Positions 1,316 to 49,046 of a DNA stretch of 64,000 bases are shown here, piece by piece. The notes below the pieces were generated by a model that ran no database searches, was not told where the DNA came from, and saw nothing but the letters and a program-made list of their open reading frames with translations. The stretch lies in NCBI GenBank assembly GCA_023475165.1, contig JAMCWA010000070.1, positions 31,672-95,671 on the forward strand, written 5' to 3'. The position numbers were made by a program, and so were the translations under genes. The stretch's first letter is position 1. Every line of letters starts with the position of its first letter. This stretch comes from Bacillota bacterium (GTDB lineage Bacteria > Bacillota > Sulfobacillia > JAMCWA01).

Positions 1316-2779
1316 CTACGTCTCCCCTCTCCCCCCTGGTATCCCCAATCTTTTCATCTTCTCATATAAGTGGGAACGGCTGAGGTTAAGCAAGCGGGCC
1401 GCTTCGCTCTTGTTCCCGTTGGTCCTGGCCAGGGCTGACAAGATTAGTTCCCTTTCCCGTAAACCCATTTCGAAGCGGAATGTGTTCTCTGGCGCCGTCG
1501 TTCCGGAGTAAGTGGCTGCCTTCAGAAGATAGGGCGGGAGGTGTTCCACCCTGATCAAGCCCCGACGAACATAGTTCAAGGCCCTTTCGATGACATTCTC
1601 CAGCTCCCGGACGTTCCCCGGCCAGTGATGCCCCTTAAGGGCCATTAATGCTTCCTGGGAAATACCTCTGACGTGAGTATCAAGGACCTGATTATATTTT
1701 TCAATAAAATTCAGCACCAGGGGTTCGATGTCTTCCAGGCGTTCCCGCAGCGGGGGCAGGTGGAGGTTGATGACGTTCAGCCGGTAGTAGAGATCCTTCC
1801 GGAAGAGACCTTCCTCCACCGCTTTCCCCAAATCCTGGTTGGTGGCAGCGATTATCCTGATATCGACCTTGATCGTCTCCAAACTGCCAACGCGCTCGAA
1901 TTCCTTTTCTTCCAGGACACGGAGGAGTTTCGCCTGAAGCAAGGGAGACATGTCCCCGATCTCATCCAAAAAGACGGTACCCTGATGGGCCTTCTCCAAG
2001 CGACCCGGTTTTCCGGTGCGTAGGGCATCGGTAAAGGCCCCGGGGGCATAGCCAAAAAGCTCTGCTTCCAGGAGCTGCTCGGGGATAGCCGAACAGTTGA
2101 TCTTAATGAATTTGTGACCCCTTCTGGGGCTGCTCTCATGGATGGCCGAAGCGACGAGCCCCTTTCCTGTTCCGCTCTCGCCGGTGATCAGGACCGTGGA
2201 CCCTCCCCTGGCCACCTGGACGATTTCCTCTTTTATCCGTTTCATCAGCGGATTGACCGTTATGATATCGTCTATCCCACCATTATTTACGCTATTGATT
2301 CTGGCCACCCTTTCGGGTTCTTCAACATTCGCCATCCCGTCCTGCACGGAATAAAGAAAAGCCTGCAGTTGCGTGGCCAGGGCATCCAGCCTTCTGATGA
2401 GAGCCATAACCATGTTGCTCTTGGTCAAGAGCCCAACCACCCGTCCCTTGGCATCGAGAACGGGGGCCGTCCCTACTGGGCTTTTCTTCACCATTTCAAT
2501 CAGGGTCTCAAATGGGAGATTGGCCGGTAGGGTAAAGACGTCCTTGAGAAGATATGGGTCAATCGGATCTTGGAGATGGGCACCCCTCAAAAGAGCATCA
2601 TAGAGGCAAGACCTGGTCAAAGCGCTGAGGAGTTTTTCTTCTTCATCAACGACGGGGATAAAGTCGACCTTATTATGCCTGAAAATGCTGACCGCCTGGC
2701 CTAGCGTATCGCCGTAACGGAGGGGGGTAAAGCGGGTTTCGAGCAGCTCTTGCAAAAGCGGTCCGCGACGTAGAGACAT
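1316..2779 (-). CDS. sigma54-dependent transcriptional activator with N-terminal CBS pair, AAA+ and Fis-type HTH
   Basis: CBS-like repeats (IPVVDEEEKLL, APVLDAKGRVVGLLT), Walker A GESGTGK, GAFTDA loop, FLDEIG, WPGNVREL, NKSEAARLLNLSRSHLY. Start placed at MSLRR (2779) behind an AAGGGGG RBS. Confidence 0.92.
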   Translation of the reverse strand: MSLRRGPLLQELLETRFTPLRYGDTLGQAVSIFRHNKVDFIPVVDEEEKLLSALTRSCLYDALLRGAHLQDPIDPYLLKDVFTLPANLPFETLIEMVKKSPVGTAPVLDAKGRVVGLLTKSNMVMALIRRLDALATQLQAFLYSVQDGMANVEEPERVARINSVNNGGIDDIITVNPLMKRIKEEIVQVARGGSTVLITGESGTGKGLVASAIHESSPRRGHKFIKINCSAIPEQLLEAELFGYAPGAFTDALRTGKPGRLEKAHQGTVFLDEIGDMSPLLQAKLLRVLEEKEFERVGSLETIKVDIRIIAATNQDLGKAVEEGLFRKDLYYRLNVINLHLPPLRERLEDIEPLVLNFIEKYNQVLDTHVRGISQEALMALKGHHWPGNVRELENVIERALNYVRRGLIRVEHLPPYLLKAATYSGTTAPENTFRFEMGLRERELILSALARTNGNKSEAARLLNLSRSHLYEKMKRLGIPGGRGET

Positions 2780-3366: not shown

Positions 3367-3680
3367 GGTCCTTCCGTCCCCTCCAAAGGCACTTAAATAT
3401 TAAATTTTTCTATCAGCGCCAAAATGTAGGATGTGTTTCTCGATTTCTGAGAAACCTCCCTTCTGACTCCTTTCTCCCCATTCATGCTCTCCAACTCGAT
3501 TCCTCGGCCTCGAAGGTAGTTGCCGAGCCACCGTTAAAACTACAACGAGTCCGTCCACCGACACTGCGGGCACCGGCTGTCTGACAAAAACATATAGCGA
3601 CTACCGCTCATTGTCAATACTAAGTATGAAGCCCGGCTGGGCCGAGCCCCTCCTTGACGCTTTGAAGAAAGATGAGCTGG

Positions 3681-3722
3681 CTTAACAGCTCGACCTCTTG
3701 AGGAAAACCCAGGTGGGAAACC
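3681..3722 (-). repeat. 42-bp fragment of the soxB-like gene
   Basis: cttaacagctcgacctcttgaggaaaacccaggtgggaaacc is 41/42 identical to 35523-35564, with a third copy at 41541-41576. Confidence 0.9.
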
Positions 3723-3810
3723 CTCTCTGCCGATGGGCCTCTCCCCAGGACGATCCCATCCTCTGGGGGGATTATGCTATAAACTGAAGGTAGACCGGGC
3801 GGTGGGTACC

Positions 3811-4338
3811 ATGTCACTTACAGATACTCAGCGGCACGTCGTGGAACTAAGGACGTTTTCTCCTGGCCATGCAAGCTTTCTCCAGACCATACTAAAAGAG
3901 ATCTTAGACTACTATGGAGAGAGGCTCGTCGGTTTGGCCATCTTTGGTTCTTATGCCCGCCGCGAGAACACTAATAATTCAGATCTCGACCTGCTCATCA
4001 TTCTAAGAGGGGCCTCCTCAAGGCGCGAGCGCATTATCGAATTCGTTAACGAAATTGAGATGAAGCATGAAAAGATGGCCCAGCATCTGTACAAGAATGA
4101 AGGAATCTTAATTGAGCTTTCTCCTTACATCCTCAATGAGAGCGAGGCCCTTAAGTTGCAGCCCATCTACTTCGACCTGGTGGAACACCATAACATCTTG
4201 TACGATCCCCGAGGTATAATAGATCGAATTATTACGTCAACAAGCAGGTTATTGAAAGAAAAAGGCGCTCGCCGGCGGAGGCGAAATAATACCTGGGAGT
4301 GGCAAACGGGATATTTTCTAGGAGGCATAGACTTATGA
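3811..4338 (+). CDS. Minimal nucleotidyltransferase (MNT, type VII TA antitoxin family), copy 1
   Basis: IFGSYAR...SDLDLLII motif; near-identical to 40072-40599. Confidence 0.88.
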   Translation: MSLTDTQRHVVELRTFSPGHASFLQTILKEILDYYGERLVGLAIFGSYARRENTNNSDLDLLIILRGASSRRERIIEFVNEIEMKHEKMAQHLYKNEGILIELSPYILNESEALKLQPIYFDLVEHHNILYDPRGIIDRIITSTSRLLKEKGARRRRRNNTWEWQTGYFLGGIDL

Positions 4339-4582: not shown

Positions 4583-5380
4583 TCAGTAATTGTGCAAAAC
4601 TCCTTTTCCTGGCCCGATGCGCCGGTGGGGGACGATGTAGCTTTTCCCTTCGATTGAGGGCAAGAGAACCTCAACCCCATAGGCTTTTTCCAGGTTAGCC
4701 GGGGTCAAAACCTCACCGGGTGGCCCGGCTGCCAAAAGACGGCCTTTGGCCAGAAGAAGGACCATGTCGGCGTGCTGATTAGCCAGATTCAGATCGTGTA
4801 ACACCATAACTACCAATCGCCCGCCGTCTGCCATTTGACGCAAGACCTCAAAAACTAGAAGTTGGTAAGCCGGATCCAGGCTGTTGGTGGGCTCATCCAG
4901 GAGGATGACCTCCGTCTCCTGGGCCAAAGCCCGCGCCAGGAAAACCTTTTGCCTTTCACCGCCGCTCAACTCACCCACCGGGCGAAACTGGTATGGTTCC
5001 AGCTCTAACGTTCTGATGGCTTTTTCAGTTGCTTCCAGATCGCGCTGCGCAAGGAACCACGAGAACTGGGGGCGGCGACCTAACAATATGGCTTCGAAGA
5101 CCGGTAAGGAGGGCAAGGTTCCATCGTTTTGGGGGAGATAACTGATTCTTTTAGCCCGTTCTGGCCACGGATAGCTTTTCAGGTCCCGCCCGTTCAATTT
5201 TATGAATCCGCTTTTTGGGGTGACGAGGCCGGTCAGGGCTCTTAAGAGGGTACTCTTTCCCGTCCCGTTGGGACCGAGGATGGCCACCACCTGGCCTCCG
5301 TGCCAGTGACTGGAAACGCCCTCCAGCGAAAAATGAGAACCATAAGTAAAAAAGAGGTTTTCCAAAAGAAGACTGGTCAT
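4583..5380 (-). CDS. ABC transporter ATP-binding protein, FecE/BtuD/HmuV type
   Basis: GPNGTGKST, LSGGERQKV, LLDEPT, VLHDLNLA. Start placed at MTSLLL. Confidence 0.92.
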   Translation of the reverse strand: MTSLLLENLFFTYGSHFSLEGVSSHWHGGQVVAILGPNGTGKSTLLRALTGLVTPKSGFIKLNGRDLKSYPWPERAKRISYLPQNDGTLPSLPVFEAILLGRRPQFSWFLAQRDLEATEKAIRTLELEPYQFRPVGELSGGERQKVFLARALAQETEVILLDEPTNSLDPAYQLLVFEVLRQMADGGRLVVMVLHDLNLANQHADMVLLLAKGRLLAAGPPGEVLTPANLEKAYGVEVLLPSIEGKSYIVPHRRIGPGKGVLHNY

Positions 5381-5561
5381 TTCTAACTCTCCGCCAAAGA
5401 GGTGAAGGTTTGCCCCAGCGAGGTCACTTTTCACTATATAAACCACTAGAAGCCATTAGCGCCTGTGCAGCAGGGATGTAAACCTGGGCCAGACTTGGCT
5501 TCCGTCAACTATCGACTGGACCGACCCGGGCTCAAGCGTCCCTGGGGAGAACTTCAGCCCT

Positions 5562-6680
5562 TCATATCGACCAGGAACGGTGCGGATTCTTCAATAATAG
5601 GTACAGAAAGTAGGGTACCCCCAAAAAGGAAGTGACCACCCCAACGGGAATTTCGGCTGGGCTCAAGACAGTCCGGGCCAGGGTGTCAGCTATAAGGAGC
5701 AGCCAGGCGCCGAGGAGGGTCGCTCCCGGCAGGAGGAAGCGATGATCGTGCCCAAAAAGATAACGGCCCACGTGCGGGGCAATGAGCCCAATAAACCCGA
5801 TAGCTCCGGTAAAGGAAATGACCACGCTGGCCACGAGGGTGGCCAGGAGCAGAGTCAGGCGGATTAAACGTTGGGTGTCAACTCCTAGACTGCGGGCCAC
5901 GTCTTCGCCCAGGGCCAGGGTATTGAGATCCCAGGAACGAAAAAAGAGGATGAGGAGTCCCACCAGTACCACGGGGGCGGAGATGATGACCATGGTCCAA
6001 TCCGCCCACCAGAGTCCACCCATTAACCAAAAGACCACGTCCTGAAGTTGGTCGGCTTTGGCCAGATACTTTAAAACCGAAACCAGGGCAGAAAAAAGAT
6101 AGCCCAAGGCCACCCCCGCCAGAAGAATGGCCCCGCTGGAGGCACGTCGCCATTTGACCAAGGCTAAAGCGACCAGGACCGTGAAGAGAGCGCAGAGGAA
6201 AGCGGCGGCGGCGATGAAAATCTTGCCAAGCCGCCAGAAATCCGGACCGAAAATTTTGGCCCCAAAAACTAAGGCCAGGGCGGCGCCAAAGGAGGCCCCG
6301 GCTGAAAGCCCCAAAGTATAAGGAGAAACGAGAGGATTACGCAGGGTGGCCTGCATCACAGTACCGGCGCCAGCCAGGGCTGAACCGGTGATGACGCCCA
6401 TGAGGATTCGCGGCAAGCGGATTTCCCAGATCACCCGCTCGGCCAGCCCGGCCGCTCCTCCACTGGGGGCTGACCGGAAGAGGGCGAGGAGCAGGTCTCG
6501 CCAGGACAGGGAGACGGTACCGATGGTGAGGGCCCATCCGGCCGTAAGCAACAGCAAGATGACGAAAGCTAGCAGGAGGACAACGCGTTGGCGGATCAAA
6601 CCGCGCCAGGAAATGGTGACCTCCTGGGCCGCTTCGAAGGAAGTCTTTAGCCGTTCTGGCTGAGCTTTACTAATCGTCAT
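5562..6680 (-). CDS. FecCD/BtuC-family ABC permease
   Basis: IRLPRI, RNPLVSPYTLG, LGEDVARSLGV, IGFIGLIAPH, EIPVGVVT. Start placed at MTISK (6680); the longer ORF-track N-terminus overlaps chlI. Confidence 0.92.
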   Translation of the reverse strand: MTISKAQPERLKTSFEAAQEVTISWRGLIRQRVVLLLAFVILLLLTAGWALTIGTVSLSWRDLLLALFRSAPSGGAAGLAERVIWEIRLPRILMGVITGSALAGAGTVMQATLRNPLVSPYTLGLSAGASFGAALALVFGAKIFGPDFWRLGKIFIAAAAFLCALFTVLVALALVKWRRASSGAILLAGVALGYLFSALVSVLKYLAKADQLQDVVFWLMGGLWWADWTMVIISAPVVLVGLLILFFRSWDLNTLALGEDVARSLGVDTQRLIRLTLLLATLVASVVISFTGAIGFIGLIAPHVGRYLFGHDHRFLLPGATLLGAWLLLIADTLARTVLSPAEIPVGVVTSFLGVPYFLYLLLKNPHRSWSI

Positions 6681-6682
6681 GA

Positions 6683-7756
6683 TTAACTCCCCTGCCGGCT
6701 CAGGTTTGCTTTCTCCTGCCCCTGCTCCGTCGTTCCGTCGTTCCCCAAGAGGTCTTCCACCTTTTTCAGATCGGGTTGAGCTTCTTGGAAGGGCCGCCGG
6801 CGCAGGCGATGAGCTAAGGTCAGACCCGCCGTGGCCGCGATGTCTTCCCTGGTTACTTCCCGCCGTCCGCGCCAGGCGGCCATGGTCCGGGCGGCCTTGA
6901 GGAGGGTGATATCGGCCCGGTGGCCGTCGACCTCCAGGGTGGTGGCTATCTCGGCGATGAGGTAGAGGATTTCGTCGCTGGCAGTGACCTCGGGCAGAAG
7001 TTGGCGGGCGGAAAGGATCTGCTGGCGCCACTCTTGCTCCTGGTCCTGCCATTTTTGGTTAAAGCCAAGGGGATCTTCCTCAAAGGCCAGTCTGCGCCGG
7101 ATCACCTCCATCCGGAGGCTGGGATCACTGATCCCCTCGACATTGACGGCCAAGCCAAAACGGTCCAACAGCTGGGGCCTCAGTTCGCCCTCTTCGGGAT
7201 TCATGGTCCCAATGAGGATAAAGCTGGCCGGGTGAGAGAAGGAAACGCCCTCGCGTTCCACGTAGTTCACGCCCATGGCGGCGGCATCCAAAAGGACGTC
7301 CACGACGTGGTCATCCAGGAGGTTAACCTCGTCGACATAGAGGATGCCACGATTGGCCTGAGCCAGAAGGCCGGGTTCAAAATGCCTCTCGCCCTTCTTA
7401 ATGGCCGTTTCCAGATCCAGCGTTCCGACTACCCGGTCTTCAGTAGCCGAAACGGGCAATTCCACGACGCGCATCTGCCGGCGAGCCCGGGGGAGTTCTT
7501 CACCCGTTTCCCGACGCTGGCGACAATGGGGGCACATGCTGCCGATATCGTCGGGATCGCAGGAGAAAGGACAGTCCGCCACCACTTCGATCTCCGGCAA
7601 AAGGGCGGCCAAGGCGCGGACGGCGGTGGATTTAGCCGTCCCCTTCTCTCCCCGGATCAAGATCCCGGAAAGACGCGGATTGATGGCGTTGAGGATGAGA
7701 CCTTTTTTCATCTCTTCTTGCCCGACGATGGCCGAAAAGGGATAGATGGGTAGCAT
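6683..7756 (-). CDS. chlI: Mg/Co-chelatase AAA+ subunit, ChlI/BchI family
   Basis: [62 protein letters not shown]. Confidence 0.93.
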
Positions 7757-7956
7757 GAGTGAGGGAGCCCTCCCTTTAGCAATTTGAGGGATAAAAACTA
7801 TTAATTATATCTTTGTGTTGGGGGTTGCGGCAACGGCGACTATTTTATAGCTCCTTCTGGCGTACCCACCAATATTCCATCTGGGGATCCTTCGGTTGAG
7901 GAAAGCACCTTCCACCGTTATGGCCAGTGGGCCGCAGCCGCATCGCCTGGCCGAGC

Positions 7957-10005
7957 TCAACGCTGGCCCGGTCTTATGGCCGCCCGCAGGGTTAAAACCA
8001 GCTCCTGGGCGCGGAGTTCTCCCAAAAGAAAATAATCGGCTCCGAGGGCGTGGGCCAGACGCTGAGACTGGCCAAAAGACAAAAGGCCGTTTTTCTCGAC
8101 GTCCACCACCAGGCTCTTGATCCGGGGATCGGCCCGGATGATGCTGGCCGCGGCGAGGGCCTCTTCCAACGGGCGACCGCTGCCTAAAGAGACATTGGCT
8201 CGTCCGTCGGTGACCAGGATGAGCCAGGGTGAGCGCTCCGGGGCTCGGTAGAAATGACCCTGGATGAGCTGGTAACTCTGCCAGAGGCCCGCGGCCAGGG
8301 GCGTTTTCCCCCCGGTCGGTAACTCTTGAAGGAGGCGGTGGGCTCTTTCCGCGCTGCTGGTGGGCGGCAAAAGAACCTGGGCTTCCTGGCCGCGAAAGAC
8401 GACGAGGCTGACCTGGTCGCGCTTTTGGTAGGCGTCAAGGAGTAGGGAAAAGACCGCTCCCTTGACCTCGATCATCCTCTCCTGCGCTCCCATGGAGCCG
8501 CTGGCGTCAACAAGGAAGACCAGGAGATGACCGGTCTTTCTTTCCCGCACCTTTTGACGCAGGTCGCTGTTTTCGATGACCAGCGCCAGGCCATCCCGGC
8601 GGCGGTAGAGCTGGTGGGGTGCCGCGGCCCGGATGGTGGCATCCAGGGCCAGGTCATCGCCCTCTTTTAGAATGGTGCTGCGGATGTAGCGTCCCCGGCG
8701 AGTTTGGCTCAAAGTGTGAAAACGGCGACCAGGTCTCCGCCGCCATAACCGGTCCCGTTCCCGTTCGAAAAGACGAAGGGGGTAGGGCTGGCCGATGGGG
8801 AAAATCCGCTCCTTCCCCGTTTGGCGTCCTGGCGAAGCGGTGACAGGGTTTTCCGTTCCCAGGCCATCCTGATAGTTTTTCGGAGAGGTTTCCGCCGCGC
8901 CTTTTGTGCAGGATGGATTCTCGTTTACCTCCCCACCCTCCATCCTTTCCCCTCGTTCGGGTGCTGGCGGCTGGTTTTCCCGGTGGCTTCCCTTGGGTGA
9001 GCTGCTGGAGGTATCCCTGGAAGCAGGGGGTTTTTCGGAAAGAGGCGGTCGATGGCGGTTTTGGTCCTCCTGGGAGGGGTTTTTTTCTGGCTGATTCTCC
9101 GTCACTGCGCGCTGGCGATGCCGGAGGGCCAATTCGGCCGCTTCTACCACGTCTTCAGCCGTCACCCACCGCCGTCCCTCCCAAGCGGCGAGGGCGCGGG
9201 CCGTCAGGGCCGTAACCAGATCACCCCGGTGTCCGGCCACTTGGGCCTGGAGACTCAGGTTGACAATCTCTTCCAATCTTTCGGGTACTAATTCGACCGT
9301 GGGGAAAATCTCCCGCGCCCGCCGGATTTTCTGCCGTAGTATTTCCGTTTCTCGTTGCCAGCGGGCCTGAAAGCCCAGTGGGTCGGCCTCAAAAGCCTCC
9401 CGCCGGCGCAGGAGTTCCATCCTTTCTTCCAGTGTCGGGAGGCTCTGCACCTCCACCACCAGGCCGAAACGATCCAAAAGCTGCGGACGAAGCTCGCCCT
9501 CTTCCGGATTCATTGTTCCGACCAGGATTATCTGAGCCGGATGCTGGAAGGAAAATCCTTCCCGCTCGACGATATTGACCCCAGAGGCCACGGCGTCAAG
9601 AATTACGTCCACCAGATGATCGTCCAGGAGGTTGACTTCATCCAAGTAAAGGATACCGCGGTGGGCCCGGAATATGAGCCCGGGCCGAAAGCGCGGTTTC
9701 CCGGTCTTAATCGCCGATTCAAAGTCAAGGCTGCCGATGACCTGATCCTCGGTAGCGGAGAGGGGTAGGGTCACCAGGGGCATGGTGCGTTGGCTGCCGT
9801 CAAGGGCGGGGAGGAGAGCGGCCAAGGAACGAACGGCGGTGGACTTGGCCGTCCCCTTTTCCCCCCGAATTAAGACGCCGCCGATTTTTGGGCAAATGGC
9901 ATTCAGGAGCAAGGCCCTTTTCATCCGCTCTTGCCCCACCAGAGCTGCAAAGGGATAAAAGACGCCTTCAGCAATCGATCTCTCAGCTGATCTGCTGGCC
10001 GACAA
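7957..10005 (-). CDS. chlD: Mg/Co-chelatase subunit, ChlD family (AAA+, low-complexity linker, VWA)
   Basis: ChlI-like N-terminus, Pro/Glu/Ser-rich linker, DATIRAAAP, VWA MIDAS VDASGSM, TGGKTPL, VTDGRAN. Confidence 0.92.
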   Translation of the reverse strand: MSASRSAERSIAEGVFYPFAALVGQERMKRALLLNAICPKIGGVLIRGEKGTAKSTAVRSLAALLPALDGSQRTMPLVTLPLSATEDQVIGSLDFESAIKTGKPRFRPGLIFRAHRGILYLDEVNLLDDHLVDVILDAVASGVNIVEREGFSFQHPAQIILVGTMNPEEGELRPQLLDRFGLVVEVQSLPTLEERMELLRRREAFEADPLGFQARWQRETEILRQKIRRAREIFPTVELVPERLEEIVNLSLQAQVAGHRGDLVTALTARALAAWEGRRWVTAEDVVEAAELALRHRQRAVTENQPEKNPSQEDQNRHRPPLSEKPPASRDTSSSSPKGSHRENQPPAPERGERMEGGEVNENPSCTKGAAETSPKNYQDGLGTENPVTASPGRQTGKERIFPIGQPYPLRLFERERDRLWRRRPGRRFHTLSQTRRGRYIRSTILKEGDDLALDATIRAAAPHQLYRRRDGLALVIENSDLRQKVRERKTGHLLVFLVDASGSMGAQERMIEVKGAVFSLLLDAYQKRDQVSLVVFRGQEAQVLLPPTSSAERAHRLLQELPTGGKTPLAAGLWQSYQLIQGHFYRAPERSPWLILVTDGRANVSLGSGRPLEEALAAASIIRADPRIKSLVVDVEKNGLLSFGQSQRLAHALGADYFLLGELRAQELVLTLRAAIRPGQR

Positions 10006-10070
10006 GGACCAGTCACCTACCTCTATGCCGCCAAAACTACCTTCTTCCGGGTAATCCCCCCGCCGCGGGT

Positions 10071-11165
10071 TTATGGATACACCCAGCGGCCATCCAGCTT
10101 AACCCCCAGAAATTTCTCCAAAAATTCGCGGTGAATCGCTTCCGGGTCGAGCCTTTTCGCCGCCTCTGGGTGGAGCCACCGGGCCAAATAGGCCATTCCC
10201 ACCACCGCTCGCGGGCCGGTGTAGATGTCACTGGACATGAGGTAAACCTTGTTCTTTTTAACCGCCGGGATATCCGACCAGCCCGGGCGCTTAAGCAGCC
10301 CTTCCCGGAGCTTTTGCCAGGGAGCCACTTCGTGGATTTTATAGCCGTTAGGTATGGAGCTGCTCAATACGCGCACGATAACTTCCGGTTTTTTGGCCAG
10401 AACCCATTCCGGATTGACCTTGGGATACTCCGTTGTCTCCTTTCCGGCGACGTTGAGACCGTTGGCGACCTGGATCATCTGTCCGCCTCCCGTTTTATCG
10501 GTGACGGTCTTAAAATCGCTGTAAAGTTCCAGGTAAATGGGGGTGGGCTTCTGTCCGGCCACAGCCGCCTTGATTTCGGCAATATATTTGTCCATGGTTT
10601 GGATATAAGCCCTGGCCCGTTCCTCCTGACCCAGGATCTGGCCGAGGGTAGTAATGTCCCTGGCCAGGGTCTCGGGCTTATAGCAGTCTAAAAGCACCAG
10701 GGGGATTCCCGCCTGAGTGATCTTCTCGGCATTTTTCAAAAAGCTGGCGTAGCCGAAGACGATATCGGGTTTAAGCTCGAGGATTTTCTCGACGTTAGGT
10801 TGCGACCACTGGCCTACGCTGGCGACGCCCGGTAAAAGTTCGGCCAAAAGGGGATCGGCCAGGGTGGTGTCGGAAACCCCGATGATTTTGTCCTTCGAGC
10901 CCAGGGCGATGATCAGTTCGGCCACGTCGCTATTGGAGACGACGATGCGGGTCGGGCGGCAAGGGACTTCCACCTGGCGCCCGGCGGAGTCGACGATGGT
11001 GATGAGTTTTTTCGCCGGGGTGGAAGAAGTGGTGGCGGATTGTCCGGGGCGGCAACCCGCCACCAGGAGGGAGAGCAGAAGAAAAACGATGAGGTATAAG
11101 AGTCCGCGGGCCAGAAGACGCCCCCAAGGACCGGAATCGTTTAAGCGCTCGTTGAAATTGATCAC
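10071..11165 (-). CDS. Fe-complex/cobalamin-type ABC substrate-binding lipoprotein (BtuF/FepB-like)
   Basis: Lipobox LVAGC, DSAGRQVEVP, PNVEKILELKPD, IPAVKKNKVY, GPR. Confidence 0.9.
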   Translation of the reverse strand: MINFNERLNDSGPWGRLLARGLLYLIVFLLLSLLVAGCRPGQSATTSSTPAKKLITIVDSAGRQVEVPCRPTRIVVSNSDVAELIIALGSKDKIIGVSDTTLADPLLAELLPGVASVGQWSQPNVEKILELKPDIVFGYASFLKNAEKITQAGIPLVLLDCYKPETLARDITTLGQILGQEERARAYIQTMDKYIAEIKAAVAGQKPTPIYLELYSDFKTVTDKTGGGQMIQVANGLNVAGKETTEYPKVNPEWVLAKKPEVIVRVLSSSIPNGYKIHEVAPWQKLREGLLKRPGWSDIPAVKKNKVYLMSSDIYTGPRAVVGMAYLARWLHPEAAKRLDPEAIHREFLEKFLGVKLDGRWVYP

Positions 11166-14100
11166 TTTACCTCCTCCTTCTGTACATTTTTTGACGCCAG
11201 TTGAACCAGCTCTTCCCTGATCTCGCGCAAAGCCCTATCCCAGTCGGCTACGTCGTCCGCTGCGTAAATGTCGATACTTCCCCCCTGAACGTTTTCCACC
11301 GGCTGGCTTTCCTCCATCATGCCCTCCAGATCAAGGTAGGCTTCCTTCAGTGCCGCCAGAGTCTCGGGATCAGGTTTCCAGATCCCCCTTTCGGCTGCTT
11401 CCAGCATCCGGCGGGCGATTTCCTCCAGCGCCCAGGGATTGCTTTCTTCAAAGAAGCGCCGATTCTCTTCGTTCAGGACAAAAGTCTGGGTAATGTCGGT
11501 AAAAACCCACTGTTCTACGGCTCCCGTGGTGGCTCCCCAACCGAATACCCGGCCCACTCTTTTGGCGATGTCTCCGGCTCCCTTATAACCGTGGGCTTTC
11601 ATTCCTTCGATCCACTTGGGATTAAGCAAGCGTGTGCGCACCACCCGGTTGATCTCGGCGCTCAAGCTGACCACGCGGGGGTGGGCGGGGTTGCGGCTGT
11701 CGCCGTGGTAAGTCCGCACCTCTTGTCCCGAGAGGACCCGGGCGGCGGCGGTAAGGCCACCATATTGACCAAAATGGGCGCAGCAACCCAAAAGATCATG
11801 CTCGTCACTGCCGTTATTCTTATAGGTAAGGGTAACGGTCTTCAATTGCTCCAGCAAGGCGCGCACCAGGGGGCGCCCGTCCAGACCGTCGCCATAAGCG
11901 AAGCTGTCATGTTGGAGGAAGACTTCGGCTAAATCCTGCTCGCGCCGCCAGGCACTGGCATAAACGGCCAGGTTGACTCCGTTACCATAAGTACCCGGGC
12001 GGGCGGAAAAGAGGCGGGCGGTGGCCAGCCGCCAGCGGGGGGAGGCTGGCCCCTGGGGTTCTTGCTGTAAGGCATGGCGGCGAATGAAGTTGTCGTCCTC
12101 CCGCTCCTCCAGACGGGCCACCAGCTGCACGGCCTGATCAAAAAGTTGGACCAGGTTGGGGAAGGTATCCCTGATGATACCCGAAAAACGTACAGTGACA
12201 TCGATGCGGGGACGACCCAGTTCGGCAAGGGAGAGCGGGGATACTCCCGTTACCCGGCCATCTTCATCCCAGAGGGGCCGTACTCCCAACAGGTAAAACA
12301 TCTGGGCCAATTGTTCACCCTGCGTCCACATGACATCGGAGGCAAACCAGATTAGACCGACGTTTTCCGGCCAGTGCCCGCTCTCCGCCAAGTAACGCTC
12401 CAGGAGGGCGTCGGCCAGCTTTTTGCCCACCTCCCAAGCGGCCGGAGAAGGGATCTGCCGCGGATCCAAAGAATAGAAGTTACGGCCAGTGGGTAAGACC
12501 TCCAGGGCTCCCCGGGAAGGGAGACCGGAGGGGCCGGCCTCGATATAGCCACCATCCAGCCCGGTAAAAAAGCTGTCGATTTCCTGCCGGGAAAGGAGGA
12601 TCCGTTGCGCGACGTCCAGGATCGCGGGGACGATCTGGGCCAGGCTGGCGGGCGGAAGGGAGGCCGTGGTGGCCAGTTCGGCCAGCGCATTTTCGTCTTC
12701 CGCTGCTTCCGGGTGGGCCAGGACCTGGGCGACGAGGTGCCTGGCGGCGGTGTGGGCTTCGTCCAACAGGGTGGAATAACTTGTTTTTCGACCCGGTGGT
12801 TTTTCACCGGGGTGGGCTAGGGCTTCGGCATAGTTAAGCCCCCAAGCCGAGAAGAAGAGGTGGGGCAAGCCCTTTTTTTGACCGCGGTCCAGCCGCAAAA
12901 AGGACGTCACTGTCTCCACCAGCTCCGTCCCGGTTGGAGTTTCCCCGAAAATGTGGAGCCCAAGGTTGGTCAGGCTATCTCTGGTCCTGGTGATGACCTC
13001 GTGCGCCCGCTTGACCACCTCTTCCATGGTCTCCTGCTCCAGGGGGACCTCCCCCGTCAGGTTGGCTTCCCTGATTTCCTCCTGGATGAGGTGGGCGAGG
13101 GCTTCTCGGCGGGCTGTATCCCCTTCGTCCAGCTGGGAGTATTCGTCCAGGTAACGGCTCAGGGTGTCCAGGTGACCGTAATTCCCGGCTTGAGCCAGAG
13201 CCGGGACATTGTGGTCGATCAAAGTGGCGTAGGAACGCCTCTTAGCGATGGTTCCTTCGGCTGGGTTATCGACCACATAGAGGTAAAGATGAGGTAAAGC
13301 GCCCAGGGCCAGATCGGGATAATCTTCTCCCGACAAACCCACCGACTTTCCCGGCAGAAATTCCAGATTGCCGTGGGTGCCGACGTGGATGATGACGTGA
13401 GTGCCGCGGACCCGCTCCTGGAACCAATAGCTGGCCAAATACTGGTGGGTCGGCGGCACGGCGGGATCGTGGAGGATTTTGCAGACCGTTCCATCGCAAC
13501 GGGCTCCGGCACAACCGCGCTTCGGTTGGACCATAATCATGGTCTTTCCAAAAGCGATTCCGGTGAGGACGATTTTGTTTTGGTAGACCATGGCTTGCCC
13601 TGGCGGCTCGCCCCAAGCGCTTTTAATCCTCTCCTGGACGGGAGCGGGCAGCTCGGCAAACCAGCGGGAATAAGTTTCCGCCTCCAGCAGGGCATAGGCC
13701 CCACCTTTTTCCACGATCTCCTGGACTGAGGTCCAACGGAATTCGGACACCGCTTTCCGCGTCATGATGAGGTCGATGAGTTCGCGCCCGTTCCGCGGGG
13801 GCTGGCCCACGTCATAGCCACGTCGGGCCATTTCCTGCAGGAGACGGGCGACGCTTTCCAGGGTATCGAGCCGGGCACCGCCGCCCACCGCTGCCTCGAC
13901 GCCGGCACAGGGGTTATTGTGGAGGACGAATGTTACCTTCCGCTCCTGGGGCGGGGTCCGTTTTAGCCGGGCCCAGGCCAGGATTCGCCTCGCCGCGTGG
14001 TGAACACGGTCGGGGATGGGCACATAACGTTCGGCGGTGATTCCGGTGTCCGGATCATAATTGCGCTCGGTGGCTCCTACCACCAGGGGTTCAATGATAC

Positions 14101-15034
14101 CGTCAAATTCGGGCATCCCTACGGCCCAGGCCACACTGGACCCCAGACCATGGTCATCTTTGAGCCACTGGGCCGGCGTTCGGCCGCTGACGACGATGGC
14201 TTTTAAGATGGGGACGTTAAGCTGCCGCAAAAGGGCCACGTTTTCAGCCTTGAGGCCGGCTAGAACGTTCCTTTGGGCGCCTGCAAAAAGGTGGGGCGAC
14301 TGTAGGTCCACCAAAACGTGGATGAGCGGATGACCGTCCGGAGTGAGGAAGAAGTGTCTGATGACCCTGGCGTTGTCCCAGCCCCCAGCCTCCACGGCCG
14401 TCATCCCGGCCGAAAAGACGGGTACGGCTGCCGCTCCGCTTTTTTCCAGCTCTCGGATCAGGGCCTCGACCACCCCCAGATTTTCCTGGACCCAGTTAGC
14501 CCGGTAAAAGAGAAGGCCGATGACGTACTTGCTTTGGTGCCTGTACCAGCTGAAATAAGAAGCGAGGTCGGGAAAGACGGATGGGGCTTCGGGGTGATAA
14601 ATCCCCTGCCAGGGGAGAGGGTCGGGTGGTTCGTATGTAATCTCCTCCCGGCCGCCGAGATGGGCCAGAAAGCGGAACATATTTATCAGGTTCTTTTTGC
14701 CGCCATAAAGGAAGTAGCGGTGGAGGGTTTCTTGCTGAGCGACGGGAAAAGTCGAATAAGCCCACTCCGCCGGATTATTGGTCAGGATACCCACTTTGAG
14801 TTGCTGCCGGATTTTTTGCCAGTTAGGGAAGAGGGTTTCCCAGGCTTCCTCCCCCCGGGAATAAACCAGAAGGATCTGGGCTTCCTCGAGGAAAGAAGTG
14901 AATGCAGCGCGTTTTTCTAGCAGCTCCTGGCGCGTCACGAAGAAGGGCTCAACAAAGTCCAGTGCTTGGACGGCAGCGCGGAGGGCGTGCAATTGGGTCC
15001 CCCAAAAAAGGCCGGCCACTTTCAATCGTTCCAA
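11162..15034 (-). CDS. cobN: CobN/BchH-family chelatase large subunit
   Basis: 1290 aa with HVGTHGNLEFLPGK, AKRR, LPTGRNFYS, LGRPRIDV, LNPKWIEGMKAHGYKGA, NPWAL. Confidence 0.93.
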   Translation of the reverse strand: MERLKVAGLFWGTQLHALRAAVQALDFVEPFFVTRQELLEKRAAFTSFLEEAQILLVYSRGEEAWETLFPNWQKIRQQLKVGILTNNPAEWAYSTFPVAQQETLHRYFLYGGKKNLINMFRFLAHLGGREEITYEPPDPLPWQGIYHPEAPSVFPDLASYFSWYRHQSKYVIGLLFYRANWVQENLGVVEALIRELEKSGAAAVPVFSAGMTAVEAGGWDNARVIRHFFLTPDGHPLIHVLVDLQSPHLFAGAQRNVLAGLKAENVALLRQLNVPILKAIVVSGRTPAQWLKDDHGLGSSVAWAVGMPEFDGIIEPLVVGATERNYDPDTGITAERYVPIPDRVHHAARRILAWARLKRTPPQERKVTFVLHNNPCAGVEAAVGGGARLDTLESVARLLQEMARRGYDVGQPPRNGRELIDLIMTRKAVSEFRWTSVQEIVEKGGAYALLEAETYSRWFAELPAPVQERIKSAWGEPPGQAMVYQNKIVLTGIAFGKTMIMVQPKRGCAGARCDGTVCKILHDPAVPPTHQYLASYWFQERVRGTHVIIHVGTHGNLEFLPGKSVGLSGEDYPDLALGALPHLYLYVVDNPAEGTIAKRRSYATLIDHNVPALAQAGNYGHLDTLSRYLDEYSQLDEGDTARREALAHLIQEEIREANLTGEVPLEQETMEEVVKRAHEVITRTRDSLTNLGLHIFGETPTGTELVETVTSFLRLDRGQKKGLPHLFFSAWGLNYAEALAHPGEKPPGRKTSYSTLLDEAHTAARHLVAQVLAHPEAAEDENALAELATTASLPPASLAQIVPAILDVAQRILLSRQEIDSFFTGLDGGYIEAGPSGLPSRGALEVLPTGRNFYSLDPRQIPSPAAWEVGKKLADALLERYLAESGHWPENVGLIWFASDVMWTQGEQLAQMFYLLGVRPLWDEDGRVTGVSPLSLAELGRPRIDVTVRFSGIIRDTFPNLVQLFDQAVQLVARLEEREDDNFIRRHALQQEPQGPASPRWRLATARLFSARPGTYGNGVNLAVYASAWRREQDLAEVFLQHDSFAYGDGLDGRPLVRALLEQLKTVTLTYKNNGSDEHDLLGCCAHFGQYGGLTAAARVLSGQEVRTYHGDSRNPAHPRVVSLSAEINRVVRTRLLNPKWIEGMKAHGYKGAGDIAKRVGRVFGWGATTGAVEQWVFTDITQTFVLNEENRRFFEESNPWALEEIARRMLEAAERGIWKPDPETLAALKEAYLDLEGMMEESQPVENVQGGSIDIYAADDVADWDRALREIREELVQLASKNVQKEEVK

Positions 15035-15045
15035 GGGTGCTCCCC

Positions 15046-15100
15046 TCTTTTCGAAAAAGAAAAACCAGGAAGCGGCTCTCCGCGAGCCTGCCTTCCTGGC
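15046..15100 (-). terminator. Intrinsic terminator inside the cobN 5' leader (attenuator)
   Basis: Sense strand gCCAGGAAGgcaGGCTCgcgGAGAGCCgCTTCCTGGttttttctttttcg, just before the cobN RBS. Confidence 0.75.
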
Positions 15101-15209
15101 TTAATTCCTGCATAGATTTTGCCCCTGAACCATCTCACAAATGGTCAGGACCAGATGCTGTTGAAGATTGATCAGACCAGGGATCTACTTGACCCCTTTT
15201 CCTGGTCCG

Positions 15210-15239
15210 ATTATATTACGAAAGGGGAAAACCTGTCAA
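15210..15239 (-). promoter_or_regulatory. sigmaA-type promoter of the cobN operon
   Basis: Exact TTGACA-N18-TATAAT on the minus strand. Confidence 0.8.
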
Positions 15240-15277
15240 CAGGTGGGCGGGAATTTTGAGCAAGGATCCCCGGTACC

Positions 15278-15510
15278 TTATGGTGGGCTGCTGGGAGGGC
15301 AAGATGGGCTAAACACTCTTCCAGGTCCTCTTTCAGGCAGGCGATGGCGCTCGGGTAGTGGTCCTGGTAGCGGTCCACCAAGATCTGGGCCAGACGCCGG
15401 GCTTCCTTCTTGTCCTGGGCCGCGAATATCTTACTGATCTCGCCCTTGAGGATTTTTGGGGCCGACTTGAGCGCCTTGGCCAGCATGTTGCGCATCTTAT
15501 GCACCGTTCC
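15278..15510 (-). mobile_element. IS256-family transposase internal fragment
   Basis: VHKMRNMLAK...IFAAQDKKEARR...RYQDHYPSAIACLKEDLEECLAHLALPAAH matches the IS256/Mutator C-terminal half; no start or ends. Confidence 0.75.
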
Positions 15511-15744
15511 GGTAGCCTTGCCAGCTACGTTCCCCGCGCTGGAGGTGTTCCCGGCCAAGGAACTCCGTCACTTCTTCTTCGATGGCCACCTGAAGCCAAT
15601 TCAAAAATCTGTCTTGGGGAGGAAGACACAGGGGTGGTTAACTTTTCGATTGCCATTTACAGGAAGAGGAGTTTTCGCTTAAATGATGTAGTATAAATAA
15701 AAGGTCCTTTAAATCATTGGAGCTTCTAGCAGGAGGGGTTTTTG

Positions 15745-34696: not shown

Positions 34697-36145
34697 CTAC
34701 ACCGCCCTGACCGTACCCCTGAGTTCCGCCCTGACCGGCGAATGTTTCTCCAGGTATCGTTTCAAGGCGTCAACCGCCCGCTCGGGGAGGTCCTGACGTC
34801 CCTGCCCGAACTTAGCCGGTACTCCCTGCTCCGTGACAAAGGCCGCCCGGTAGAGACGGTGCAGATCAATCTCTTTCTCGCCCAAAAACAGCTGCTGCAC
34901 CCTCTGGCCAGCGGGGTTCTCGATTTTAACCAGAACCGTTACCCCGAGCATTCGCTTGATATAACCGCCCATCTGGCCGAAAGGATCGCGGGAAAAGGTC
35001 CGTTCCAGGTTTTCCTCCAACATTTCCCTGATCTCATAACCAGTTAGATTCACTGTAGATACGGGCGGGTTTTCGGGGATGATGTTATAAAGGTCGTTCA
35101 TCGTCACCGGGCCAGACGGTACCGGTGCCGCATAGCGCCAACCATTGGAAAAAGCCACCTCGGCCCCCGTCAGATCGATGATACTTTGCAAAAGCAAATT
35201 ATCCATGGTCGTCTCCAACATGCCGCCCCTGTCCAAGGGGCTGTCCGTCTCCCCCACAACCTGTCCCAGGAATTCCCGGGACGGCTCCAGGATCGTGGAA
35301 ATCATTCCTTCCACCTCGTCGTCCGGGTGGAGGTCAGGGGTGATGGCGATCAACCGGTGCCGGTAGCTGGTCACCCTTTTGCCTTCCACCGTCAGATCGA
35401 GCCGACCCAAAAAGGAACCGTGCAACCCCGATTGAATGACCAACGTCTGCCCCACTACCACCGGCTGGTAGAGGCGGTTGTGGGTATGACCGCTCAGGCA
35501 AACATCCACCCCCGCGACCTGCCTTAATAGCTCGACCTCTTGAGGAAAACCCAGGTGGGAAACCAGGATTACCAAGTCCACCTTCTCCTTCTCCCGCAAG
35601 AGGTTCAGGTAAGAGGGCAATTCCTGGCGACCATCGGAAAAGCGCAGGCCCTGGCTGAAATGGGGCGGCATGGTCTTGTCCACGATATTGCTGGCTATCC
35701 CCACCAGGCCCACCCGCAAACTCCCCACTTCTTTAACGAGATACGGTGGAAAAACCAGATTGCCCGTCTTCTTGTCGTAAACGTTGATCGCCAGGATCGG
35801 ATAGTTCAATCCGGCGGCGATCTTCTGTACTCCTTGAGGTGTATAAGCGAATTCCCAGTGGACGGTCATCGCCACCGGGCCGATGGCGTTCAACACAGGC
35901 AGGAGAGCCAGGCCTTGACTCTGTACCGCCGGATAAGTCCCGTGGAAGGTATCGCCGCAATCCGCCAGGAGGCAGGCCCCTTTGGTCTCGGCTCTGATTC
36001 CCCGCACCAGGGCGGCCAGGCGCGCGTATCCTCCACCCATCCGGTACTCTGACCCCGCCGCCGTCCAGAAGACCTCCGGGTGCGGTTCGAGGTAAGCGTG
36101 ACTGTCGTTTATTTGTAAGATCGTCAACTCCTTGGCGCCAGACAT
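34697..36145 (-). CDS. SoxB-like bifunctional metallophosphatase / 5'-nucleotidase, no signal peptide
   Basis: NDSHA, DCGDTFHG, HWEF (SoxB-type rather than GNHEF), VSHLG, SGHTH, SNGWRY, DPFGQMGG. Start at MSGAK behind GAAGGAG. Confidence 0.88.
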   Translation of the reverse strand: MSGAKELTILQINDSHAYLEPHPEVFWTAAGSEYRMGGGYARLAALVRGIRAETKGACLLADCGDTFHGTYPAVQSQGLALLPVLNAIGPVAMTVHWEFAYTPQGVQKIAAGLNYPILAINVYDKKTGNLVFPPYLVKEVGSLRVGLVGIASNIVDKTMPPHFSQGLRFSDGRQELPSYLNLLREKEKVDLVILVSHLGFPQEVELLRQVAGVDVCLSGHTHNRLYQPVVVGQTLVIQSGLHGSFLGRLDLTVEGKRVTSYRHRLIAITPDLHPDDEVEGMISTILEPSREFLGQVVGETDSPLDRGGMLETTMDNLLLQSIIDLTGAEVAFSNGWRYAAPVPSGPVTMNDLYNIIPENPPVSTVNLTGYEIREMLEENLERTFSRDPFGQMGGYIKRMLGVTVLVKIENPAGQRVQQLFLGEKEIDLHRLYRAAFVTEQGVPAKFGQGRQDLPERAVDALKRYLEKHSPVRAELRGTVRAV

Positions 36146-39684: not shown

Positions 39685-40071
39685 TTGGATCAATAGCTAC
39701 ACCCTCCGATCGCTTGACAATGAATGCTATTCGTTGTAAGTTATATCCACAAAACTTGCCGGTAATCGATAAGCCGCCAGGCGACCGTGGTGTAGGAGTG
39801 GATGACGCCGCGGCCCCCACGGATCCGCCGTAACTCAGGGTCATGTAAAAGACGGTCCTGGCGTAGGACCCGGCCATGCCGTGGCCGACCCCCGTGATCC
39901 GCCTTGGCGATCAGTCCGCTGGATAAATGCGCGGCGTTCCTGATCTCCCATTTCCTTTATCATTTGACCTTTATCATTTGACTTTCATCATGAAAAAGGC
40001 CAGCCCCCCTTGATTCATATCCTCTGGGGGGATTACGCCATAAACTGAAGGTAAACCGGGCGGTGGATACC

Positions 40072-40599
40072 ATGTCACTTACCGATATTCAGCGGCACGT
40101 CGTGGAACTAAGGACGTTTTCTTCTGGCCATGCAACCTTTCTCCAGACCATACTAAAAGAGATCTTAGACTACTATGGAGAGAGGCTCGTCGGTTTGGCC
40201 ATCTTTGGTTCTTATGCCCGCCGCGAGAACACTAAGAATTCAGATCTCGACCTGCTCATCATTCTAAGAGGGGCCTCCTCAAGGCGCGAGCGCATTATCG
40301 AATTCGTTAACGAAATTGAGATGAAGCATGAAAAGATGGCCCAGCATCTGTACAAGAATGAAGGAATCTTAATTGAGCTTTCTCCTTACATCCTCAATGA
40401 GAGCGAGGCCCTTAAGTTGCAGCCCATCTACTTCGACCTGGTGGAACACCATAACATCTTGTACGATCCCCGAGGTATAATAGATCGAATTATTACGTCA
40501 ACAAGCAGGTTATTGAAAGAAAAAGGCGCTCGCCGGCGGAGGCGAAATAATACCTGGGAGTGGCAAACGGGATATTTTCTAGGAGGCATAGACTTATGA
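40072..40599 (+). CDS. MNT antitoxin (type VII HEPN/MNT TA), copy 2
   Basis: GSYAR...SDLD motif; overlaps the HEPN gene (ATGA). Confidence 0.9.
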   Translation: MSLTDIQRHVVELRTFSSGHATFLQTILKEILDYYGERLVGLAIFGSYARRENTKNSDLDLLIILRGASSRRERIIEFVNEIEMKHEKMAQHLYKNEGILIELSPYILNESEALKLQPIYFDLVEHHNILYDPRGIIDRIITSTSRLLKEKGARRRRRNNTWEWQTGYFLGGIDL

Positions 40600-41012
40600 A
40601 GAATGATGAGCTGACCACGGCCTACTTAAAAAAGGCTAAGGTACGTTTGGAGGCTCTCTCCTTTTACCGGGAACGGGGGGCTTATTCGGATGTAGTCAGA
40701 GAGGCTCAAGAGTTGGTAGAACTTCTTTTGAAGGGTGTGCTGAGGGCGATCGGCGTGGAGGTACCAAAAGTTCATGACGTCAGTAGGGCTTTGGAGAACA
40801 ACCGCGACCTTTTGCCAAGCGATCTGGTTACTGAGCTCGATGAGGTCAAACGGATCTCTAAACGCTTGCGAAAGGAAAGGGAACTGGCCTTTTACGGGGC
40901 CGAGGACTTTGTACCTACTGAAGAGTATGACCTCAACGATGCCGATCTGGCCATCAAAGAAGCCGAATTCATCTATAAAATAGTGAGCAAGAGTTTCCAA
41001 GAAAATAGTTAA
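40596..41012 (+). CDS. HEPN-domain toxin
   Basis: AQELVELLLKGVL, PKVHDV, RELAFY (Rx4Y); directly downstream of MNT. Confidence 0.9.
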   Translation: MKNDELTTAYLKKAKVRLEALSFYRERGAYSDVVREAQELVELLLKGVLRAIGVEVPKVHDVSRALENNRDLLPSDLVTELDEVKRISKRLRKERELAFYGAEDFVPTEEYDLNDADLAIKEAEFIYKIVSKSFQENS

Positions 41013-41576
41013 AAGGTCCGTTCCAGGTTTTCCTCCAATATTTCCTTGATCTCATAACCAGTTAGGTTCACCATAGATACGGGCGGGTTTTCCGGGATGA
41101 TGTTGTAAAGGTCGTTCATCTTCACTGGGCCGGATGGTACCGGTGCCCCGTAGCGCCAACCATTGGAAAAGGCCACCTCAGCCCCCGTCAGATCAACGAT
41201 ACTTTGCAAAAGCAGATTATCCATAGTCGTCTCCAGCATTCCTCCCCGGTCCAACGGGGTGGCCGTCTCCCCCACAACCTGTCCCAGGAATTCCCGGGAC
41301 GGCTCCAGGATCGTGGAAATCATCCCTTCCACCTCGTCGTCCGGGTGGAGGTCAGGGGTGATGGCGATCAACCGGTGCCGGTAGCTGGTCACCCTTTTGC
41401 CTTCCACCGTCAGATCGAGCCGGCCCAAAAAGGAACCGTGCAACCCCGATTGAATGACCATCGTCTGCCCCACTAACACCGACTGGTAGAGGCGGTTGTG
41501 GGTATGGCCGCTCAGGCAGATATCCACCCCCGTTACCTGCCTTAAAAGCTCGACCTCTTGAGGAAAACCCAGGTGG
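41011..41576 (-). pseudogene. 566-bp internal fragment of a second soxB-like allele
   Basis: Colinear with 34993-35558, with scattered substitutions, many synonymous; no start or end of the gene. Confidence 0.92.
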
Positions 41577-41577
41577 A

Positions 41578-41614
41578 ATTGACCCACCCTCCATAGGACT
41601 GAGTGCCTCATTGC
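41578..41614 (+). repeat. IS21-end-like ~35-bp repeat, copy 1
   Basis: tgacccaccctccataggactgagtgcctcattgc, similar to 42690-42724. Confidence 0.65.
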
Positions 41615-48468: not shown

Positions 48469-48860
48469 GACGCCATCCTCCCGAAAATCGCGCTGGTCTA
48501 AACATTTCCGCGGCCATCCGTACTACCGATTTTCTGACCATCTATTGGCCGAAGAGCGCTAAGTTTTGCGATGACCAATGTACCATCCTCGGCTAGGAAT
48601 TTACGGACCAACGAACCCAGCTAACGGAACACGAACGCTAGATCAACAGCCTACTTCACCCCCGTCTGTTGGCAATGGGGGCAATTCACGCTAACTAGTA
48701 AATCGTAGTTCCCGTAGACAACGGACCAGGCTTTGCTTCGGCCAGGATATCGAGGCGCTCGTCCTCGGACAAGGCCTTTTCCACCCCACGGACCCACCCT
48801 ACCAGGACCTTCACCGAATGGGCAATCGACACGCCGGATCGGCTGTGCGTGGCCGACCTG

Positions 48861-49046
48861 GCCGCTACCCTACTGAATCCGCAAGGTCGTTCCATCGCCG
48901 AGCTCCCAAGCAGACTTGGAACTACGGTAAGGCCGCCGCTACCTCACTGAATCCGCAGGGCCTATTCCATCGCCGAGCTCCCAAGCAGACTTGGAATTAC
49001 GGTAAGGCCGCCGCTACCCTATTGAATCCGCAGCGCCTGTTCCATC
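48861..49046. repeat. About 2.5x 74-75-bp tandem repeat spanning the permease stop codon
   Basis: Units start at 48861, 48935 and 49010 (gccgctacc..tgaatccgca...ttccatcgccgagctcccaagcagacttggaa.tacggtaaggcc). Confidence 0.92.

Follow-up and report, generated by a model that had tools for sequence, protein, structure and literature searches.

How is the operon that begins with cobN in this genome switched on? The substrate of the class I (CobN/ChlID) chelatases of anaerobes that are linked to BtuFCD-, CbiMNQO-, or TonB-type importers is unsettled, and the manner in which such an enzyme is switched on would hint at the metal or tetrapyrrole that it handles. The cobN gene examined here is located within a stretch of 64,000 nucleotides (hereafter, the window), and the region ahead of it had been predicted to contain an unrecognized riboswitch or attenuator, with a new metal- or tetrapyrrole-responsive RNA as the proposed identity. 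A leader with ligand-sensing ability would reveal the substrate of the chelatase and add a riboswitch class. In this report, we find the anatomy of an attenuator, with a unique promoter and a strong terminator, whereas direct sensing of a ligand by the leader is unsupported. As the evidence stands, this is one more unassigned terminator-bearing leader, and its main practical value is that of a defined target for termination assays.

The operon is composed of six genes, all of them open, in the order cobN, BtuF-like, ChlD, ChlI, BtuC-like, and BtuD-like. The product of cobN matched the Pfam family CobN-Mg_chel (E = 0) and the NCBIfam model TIGR02257 (839 bits; cutoff, 822 bits), and no other in-frame start codon for cobN was found between the upstream stop codon and the TTG at 15034. 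In the list of open reading frames, that of the FecCD permease extends about 370 nt into the ChlI-like gene; its FecCD domain does not start until residue 166, and thus the true start codon of the permease is probably located further downstream. Directly upstream of the promoter, between it and a divergent folE-folP-folB-folK cluster, is a fragment of a decayed transposase. No regulator gene was found adjoining the operon. All of the features of the cobN leader are on the minus strand, and their coordinates are presented in Table 1 together with those of the genes and of the similar elements in two other loci.

Table 1. Coordinates of the cobN leader, the cobN operon, and similar elements (positions in the window, except for the last three lines, which are positions in loci L006 and L070)
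Feature	Position	Strand	Remark
-35 hexamer TTGACA	15234..15239	-	6/6 of the 12/12 promoter consensus match
-10 hexamer TATAAT	15210..15215	-	18-nt spacer from -35; part of the 12/12 match
DNA palindrome TCGGACCAGG-N19-CCTGGTCTGA	15172..15210	.	9/10 complementary
Leader hairpin P1, GGGGUC-AAGUA-GAUCCC	15180..15196	-	
Imperfect direct repeat, CUGGUCUGAUCA and CUGGUCCUGACCA	15142..15180	-	copies at 15180-15169 and 15154-15142
Leader hairpin P2, CCUGACCAU-UUGUGAG-AUGGUUCAGG	15124..15149	-	
Intrinsic terminator, hairpin plus U-tract	15053..15102	-	hairpin 15102-15062; U-tract UUUUUCUUUUUC 15064-15053
Ribosome-binding site AGAGGGGAG	15040..15048	-	5 nt ahead of the TTG start
cobN-type class I chelatase large subunit	11162..15034	-	1290 aa; TTG start at 15034
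Rest of the operon after cobN	4583..11165	-	Pfam/NCBIfam matches
Peripla_BP_2 binding protein (BtuF-like)	10071-11165	-	
ChlD-like AAA+VWA	7957-10005	-	
ChlI-like	6683-7756	-	
FecCD/BtuC-like permease	within 5562-7052	-	
ABC ATPase (BtuD-like)	4583-5446	-	
Decayed Mutator/IS256-family transposase fragment	15274..15558	-	profile positions 249-331 of 379
Hairpin-plus-U-tract element, L006	1957-2000		GCCA(G/C/U)GAAGG basal arm
Hairpin-plus-U-tract element, L070	2192-2236		GCCA(G/C/U)GAAGG basal arm
Hairpin-plus-U-tract element, L070	1897-1819	-	GCCA(G/C/U)GAAGG basal arm

The perfect promoter of the original prediction was confirmed at all 12 positions, and it is the sole one in the window. The pattern TTGACA-N16-18-TATAAT was expected 0.01 times and was present in 1 of 100 shuffled windows; the consensus promoter thus exceeds chance. 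A sigma-70-type consensus promoter would start RNA near 15203, and from the spacing of the hexamers the predicted start is at about A15203, where the promoter should fire. A second promoter-like site, TTGACC-N17-TATATT (10/12), is found on the plus strand at 15189-15217; its -10 element overlaps, back to back, that of the minus-strand consensus promoter, and it would point toward the transposase fragment and folE.

The strong terminator that had been noted just ahead of the ribosome-binding site was likewise borne out. The hairpin has a calculated stability of -25.8 kcal/mol and is composed of a basal stem, AAGCCAGGAAG/CUUCCUGGUUU, with two 1-nt bulges, an apical stem, GGCUC/GAGCC, and a GCGGA loop. 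The U-tract contains U at 11 of its 12 positions, and the terminator exists on the minus strand only. Folding of the whole 176-nt leader gave a z-score of -2.87, with 1 of 200 shuffles as stable, and the terminator exceeds chance. It is located about 5 nt before the ribosome-binding site and about 25 nt from the start codon of cobN. These 25 or so nucleotides leave too little space for another promoter ahead of the ribosome-binding site, and every transcript into cobN must therefore read through the terminator. A leader of about 170 nt had been proposed; the leader is present, and its untranslated length is put at roughly 150 bases.

A G+C-rich hairpin and a U-tract are therefore found between the promoter and the first start codon, as in an intrinsic-terminator attenuator. 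After about 100 nt that contain two ordinary hairpins, the RNA would form the very stable hairpin with its U-tract, and, left alone, it should terminate ahead of the ribosome-binding site of cobN. The operon would be expressed by read-through only, and it is this read-through that may be modulated. We hold with about even confidence that the cobN leader is a default-off transcription attenuator. Such an attenuator is of an established kind, made up of promoter, leader, and terminator, and belongs to no described family. For this assignment are the occurrence in order of a unique promoter, a strong hairpin with its U-tract, and a ribosome-binding site, the short distance from the terminator to the start codon, the lack of a coding signal in the leader, the six open genes of the operon, and a distant locus of the same layout (L006), in which cobN is also the first gene and the hairpin has 11 nt in common with that of the window. 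Against it are the weakness of the best antiterminator, a 5' leader of chance-level structure for which no conservation was found in the loci compared, the adjacent decayed transposase, and the open frames that abut cobN in many of the homologous loci, all of which are considered below.

The two hairpins claimed for the 5' leader, P1 and P2, are present, and the imperfect direct repeat falls in the linker between them. The minimum free energy and centroid folds of the 5' leader both consist of two independent hairpins with no junction. The 101-nt 5' part, folded without the terminator, gave a z-score of -1.53, and 14 of 200 shuffles were equally stable; the structure of the 5' leader does not exceed chance. 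Alternative folds had also been proposed, and the complementarity behind them is real: ACCAGGAA (15206-15199) is exactly complementary to UUCCUGGU of the terminator 3' arm, and two copies of CUGGUC are found in the leader. The pairing itself does not go beyond chance. By our own arithmetic, the 5-8 bp of these alternative pairings are roughly the length that chance would provide, and the words behind them are common in this window, with 17 copies of GGACCAG (10.6 expected) and 30 of CCAGGAA (14.7 expected).

When the 3' arm of the terminator was blocked, the best fold paired GCCAGG with CCUGGU over 6 bp and also invaded P1. In free energy, the fold that includes this antiterminator is 13.3 kcal/mol above that of the terminator, and in stepwise folding the pairing was transient, appearing only when the nascent RNA was 110-120 nt long. 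We estimate that a 6-bp helix such as GCCAGG/CCUGGU is expected by chance. P1, the CCUGGU segment, and the 5' arm of the terminator are mutually exclusive partners, and the 5' arm can also form a GCC-AGGAA-GGC mini-hairpin. A convincing RNA switch is not visible in the leader, and no element of the RNA seems capable of preventing formation of the terminator hairpin. We judge it likelier that termination is relieved by a trans-acting factor on the 5' arm of the terminator, or that the terminator is leaky, than that an aptamer in the 5' leader is responsible. In our own order of likelihood, these two are followed by a nonregulatory arrangement left by an insertion sequence, a repressor at the start-site palindrome, a riboswitch, and a stand-alone small RNA.

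The cobN leader shares with the classical terminator/antiterminator attenuators of Bacillota a promoter, an untranslated leader, and an intrinsic terminator right before the first gene, and the predicted default state is termination in both. It differs from the protein- and ribosome-mediated examples in having no strong antiterminator. Judged by what we take to be the binding motifs of the known antiterminator proteins, no recognizable motif of this type is found in the cobN leader.

The gene family provides limited material for comparison. Among 5.8 billion proteins, the nearest CobN sequences outside its own cluster are 48-50% identical and are found in Bacillota MAGs, Desulfofundulus, Thermacetogeniaceae, Ammonifex, and Desulforudis. 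Since no relative among these proteins exceeds 50% identity, they provide no orthologous leaders for a covariation test. The homologous loci compared here are at least 80 cobN loci of 37-57% identity, a set that leaves out the Bacillota relatives at 48-50%; those listed are mostly from Methanothrix or Methanosarcina, with some from Desulfobacterota and Thermodesulfobacteria and one from a Firmicutes MAG. In a tree of 57 full-length CobN sequences, that of the window is on a long branch beside two archaeal loci and locus L012. It is an orphan, and its branch neighbors are archaeal (Syntrophoarchaeum / GoM-Arc1) together with one sequence from a Firmicutes MAG. CobN homologues are also found on plasmids (276 records), all of them below 60% identity (35-37% among those listed) and mostly from Ralstonia and other Proteobacteria.

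A same-strand open frame abuts cobN in 28 of the 45 loci with usable upstream sequence, where the frames were taken from stop to stop with a length of at least 80 aa and represent putative genes. An operon that starts with cobN behind a leader of its own thus departs from the ancestral norm. The neighbors of cobN that were checked are CbiQ/CbiO, ABC ATPases, binding proteins, or TonB-dependent receptors. The importers seen beside the homologues include CbiQ/CbiO-type systems (L012 and L020), TonB-dependent receptors (L005 and L070), a Peripla_BP_2 protein (L005), and an ABC ATPase with a Gate-domain protein (L014).

The best surviving alternative to an attenuator is that the arrangement is a nonregulatory by-product. 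A rearrangement by an insertion sequence would have set a promoter and an old terminator before a horizontally acquired operon, which would now be constitutive at a low leaky level or effectively silent. The transposase fragment abuts the promoter, and because the decayed gene adjoins the leader, the promoter and the terminator could have been joined by rearrangement and not by selection. The same explanation would account for an orphan, long-branched CobN that is most closely related to sequences from archaea or other phyla, for the finding that most homologues among the loci listed are not first in their operons, and for a region in which only the promoter and the terminator exceed chance. 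However, chance is most unlikely to have produced a perfect promoter at exactly this place and in this orientation, all of the genes of the operon are intact, and the same layout of promoter, hairpin, and ribosome-binding site is found in L006, with a stem arm that is identical over 11 nt. We consider the by-product to be unlikely on balance. No intact copy of this Mutator/IS256-family transposase was found within the window, and the missing 48 C-terminal residues were not found in any frame of 15035-15275. A 36-aa piece at 15500-15607, which presumably resembles the N-terminus of a transposase, had no Pfam match, and an internal deletion is accordingly not proposed.

Control could also be exerted on the DNA, a possibility that the original prediction had allowed for the GACCAG repeats. 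The palindrome in Table 1 starts on the final base of the -10 hexamer and extends over the predicted start, and it is a candidate operator or, alternatively, the lower stem of a hairpin in the 5' leader. In the former case, TCGGACCAGG-N19-CCTGGTCTGA would be bound over the start by a repressor such as a metal sensor, and the RNA hairpins would be incidental. The pattern GGACCAG-N10-40-CTGGTC is found once in the window, where 0.09 is expected, and there is precedent in the gene family. In two Deltaproteobacteria MAGs, perfect GTAACAC-N13-GTGTTAC boxes are located about 20 nt upstream of distant cobN homologues (L033, 230-256; L048, 2453-2479), and a further box with 2 mismatches is found at L048 6931-6957. 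This pattern is the reversed NikR signal of the delta-proteobacteria (PMC545781), and CobN-related chelatases are described as possible nickel chelatases in methanogens (PMC3087415). The perfect boxes at L033 and L048 thus provide precedent for DNA operators of metal-dependent control among these genes, and their sequences suggest nickel-responsive control of the L033/L048 CobN clade. By pointing to nickel, they may tell more about the biology of the gene family than the leader does.

The window shares with L033 and L048 the gene family, and in those two loci a metal-linked control element is directly upstream. The difference is that DNA boxes are found there, whereas no NikR-type box (GTGTTAC-N13/14-GTAACAC or reversed, with up to 2 mismatches) was found in the window. 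In addition, 8 of 100 shuffled windows contained a match to the palindrome pattern, no second copy is found in the window that would suggest a regulon, no regulator gene is next to the operon, and the terminator is left unexplained. A repressor acting in place of the attenuator is accordingly improbable, but one that acts on the start-site palindrome could coexist with other mechanisms.

Operons of this type are often under the control of B12 riboswitches, and a promoter, a long leader, and a terminator close to the ribosome-binding site are the architecture of Bacillota riboswitches. In a new riboswitch, P1, the linker, and P2 would bind a metal ion, a corrinoid, or another tetrapyrrole and would switch between antiterminator and terminator; the exclusive pairing among P1, the CCUGGU segment, and the 5' arm of the terminator is what such a switch would use. 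That the leader is not a known riboswitch and has no B12-box, as the original prediction held, was upheld by the search of Rfam 15 (4227 models), in which no matches were found in the whole window at gathering scores. A permissive scan of 14900-15700 (E ≤ 10) gave 4 matches with E-values of 0.9-8.8, all far below threshold. These were to a plant miRNA, IhtA (E = 0.9), a flavivirus repeat, and H19, which are eukaryotic, viral, or chlamydial families that are unrelated to the leader.

The cobalamin riboswitch (RF00174 and its clan) was rejected because none of its models matched, either at gathering scores or with the permissive limit of E ≤ 10. Leaders with this riboswitch resemble that of cobN in being 5' leaders of cobN/BtuFCD-type operons with an intrinsic terminator beside the ribosome-binding site, but the cobN leader matches no cobalamin model. 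Within the terminator arm, the initial 9 nt (AAGCCAGGA) are like the start of what we take to be the B12-box consensus, and the remainder is unlike it. For the NiCo riboswitch (czcD), the metal-related context of the operon and the words CUGAUCA and CAACAG provide a faint likeness; this resemblance was not sustained, because no covariance-model match was obtained at E ≤ 10 and the leader forms two separate hairpins in place of a four-way junction. No Rfam family, the cobalamin riboswitch included, was found among the 34 homologous loci scanned at gathering score.

In the 80 cobN loci listed, nothing that corresponds to the 5' leader was detected with blastn, with nhmmer, or with a covariance model built from the single sequence. 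The blastn-short search of these loci returned matches of 12-17 nt only (E ≥ 1.9), and nhmmer returned nothing. Apart from the leader itself, the covariance model of the 5' part (R2) recovered only a site downstream of cobN in L073 (E = 0.071) and one in L002 (E = 5.7). The absence of a homologue from these loci, the chance-level stability of the 101-nt 5' part, the two simple hairpins, the 6-bp antiterminator, and the lack of room for an aptamer in L006 (see below) all count against the claim of a new metal- or tetrapyrrole-responsive RNA, which we consider improbable.

The terminator has a likeness in two Desulfobacterales loci, where its basal stem, GCCAGGAAGG/CUUCCUGG, is found again a short way ahead of cobN. 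One of them, L006, is from an uncultured member of the Desulfobacterales and has its genes arranged as cobN-chlI-chlD; the other, L070, is from Desulfosarcina variabilis. In L006, a promoter-like site (11/12) at 1911-1938 is followed by a hairpin of -45 kcal/mol, a U-tract, and a ribosome-binding site. The basal stem of this hairpin, GCCAGGAAGG/CUUCCUGGC, is identical to that of the window terminator, and the promoter-like site is directly ahead of the hairpin, which leaves no room for an aptamer. The stem in L070, GCCACGAAGG/CUUCGUGGC, contains one compensatory change from a G-C to a C-G pair and has the same tail. A second and weaker look-alike in L070 (1897-1819) precedes a divergent gene of a DUF3450 / ExbB neighborhood (E = 0.002). 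The elements of L006 and L070 share with the window the basal stem, an A-rich 5' flank, the U-tract, and a purine-rich block like a ribosome-binding site; they differ in that the apical stems are unrelated and the L070 element is about 260 nt before the start codon of cobN.

The stem pattern was found at 4 distinct sites in 658,724 bases, 3 of which are these elements and 1 of which is in coding sequence, although the pattern was defined post hoc, after the matches had been seen, and the paired arms of one hairpin do not count as separate lines of evidence. Of the 265 terminator-like hairpins in these 658,724 bases, only that of L006 has more than 7 nt (11 nt) in common with the window arm, besides its reverse strand (9 nt). 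When the final 100 nt of the leader were aligned locally with 46,978 locus tiles, neither L006 nor L070 was at the top (top score 31, L045), and the similarity of the hairpins is therefore confined to the arm match. Covariation over the 3 sequences amounts to one compensatory pair and is not significant, since 174 of 500 shuffles do as well. The proteins of L006 and L070 are 66% identical to one another and are far from that of the window in the tree, which makes common descent of the leader unlikely. Judged from these sequences, the likeness of the stems is suggestive only.

A more ambitious reading would take the terminator as the functional core of a new class of small cis-regulatory RNAs, made up of the GCCAGGAAGG/CUUCCUGGC stem with a 5' arm that can also form the mini-hairpin, the U-tract, and the ribosome-binding site; we think this has a small chance of being right, and the same small chance applies to its corollary, that the class recurs before cobN-type chelatase operons in a Bacillota-like genome and two Desulfobacterales. 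If it were true, a sequence-specific antitermination factor or a ligand tied to the supply of metal or tetrapyrrole would be implied. A permissive Rfam scan of the upstream regions of L070 and L006 gave chance-level matches only, besides one in L006 that is like a CRISPR repeat. This is a single CRISPR-DR8-like repeat at 1864-1899 (minus strand, E = 0.009) that is unrelated to the leader. Repeated GAGGTCTGCG / CCGCAGACCT elements are found at L006 1640-1830, and both they and the CRISPR-like repeat are in a gap of 515 nt between a MazF-like gene and cobN.

Two protein-binding RNA motifs were considered. With respect to what we take to be the consensus of CsrA-type GGA sites, the change of GGA to CGA in L070 together with its compensating change favors pairing over a motif. 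The mini-hairpin of the cobN leader has a loop of 5 nt, and not the 6 nt that we presume for the dual hexaloops of the ANTAR type.

A leader peptide was rejected. Open reading frames of 10, 38, and 54 codons are present, with ribosome sites that are poor or occluded by structure, and L006 has no counterpart of them. Pfam returned nothing for either plus-strand frame of the leader and a chance-level match to PXT1 (E = 0.13) for the 54-codon frame on the minus strand. No copies of the leader were found elsewhere in the window or in plasmids (distant DNA mode), and a full-text literature search found no paper with the cobN leader RNA as its topic by title or abstract. An independent small RNA, about 150 nt in length, that runs from promoter to terminator and acts in trans, with transcription of cobN as incidental read-through, would make use of the unit's own strong promoter and terminator but is very improbable, given that no small RNA of Rfam matched (IhtA, E = 0.9), that no copy or homologue is found in the window or the 80 cobN loci listed, and that the operon would then be without a promoter of its own.

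The window also contains repeats at a distance from the cobN operon. Tandem repeats are found at 48890-49039 (75 nt, 2 copies, 92%) and 49716-49942 (about 79 nt, 2-3 copies, 82-94%), and an open reading frame in this region (48818-49270) has no Pfam match. Dispersed repeats of 82-97% identity are found at 3674-4057, 34993-35564, 40019-40318, and 41011-41582; these surround genes for nucleotidyltransferase and 5'-nucleotidase domains and indicate duplicated segments.
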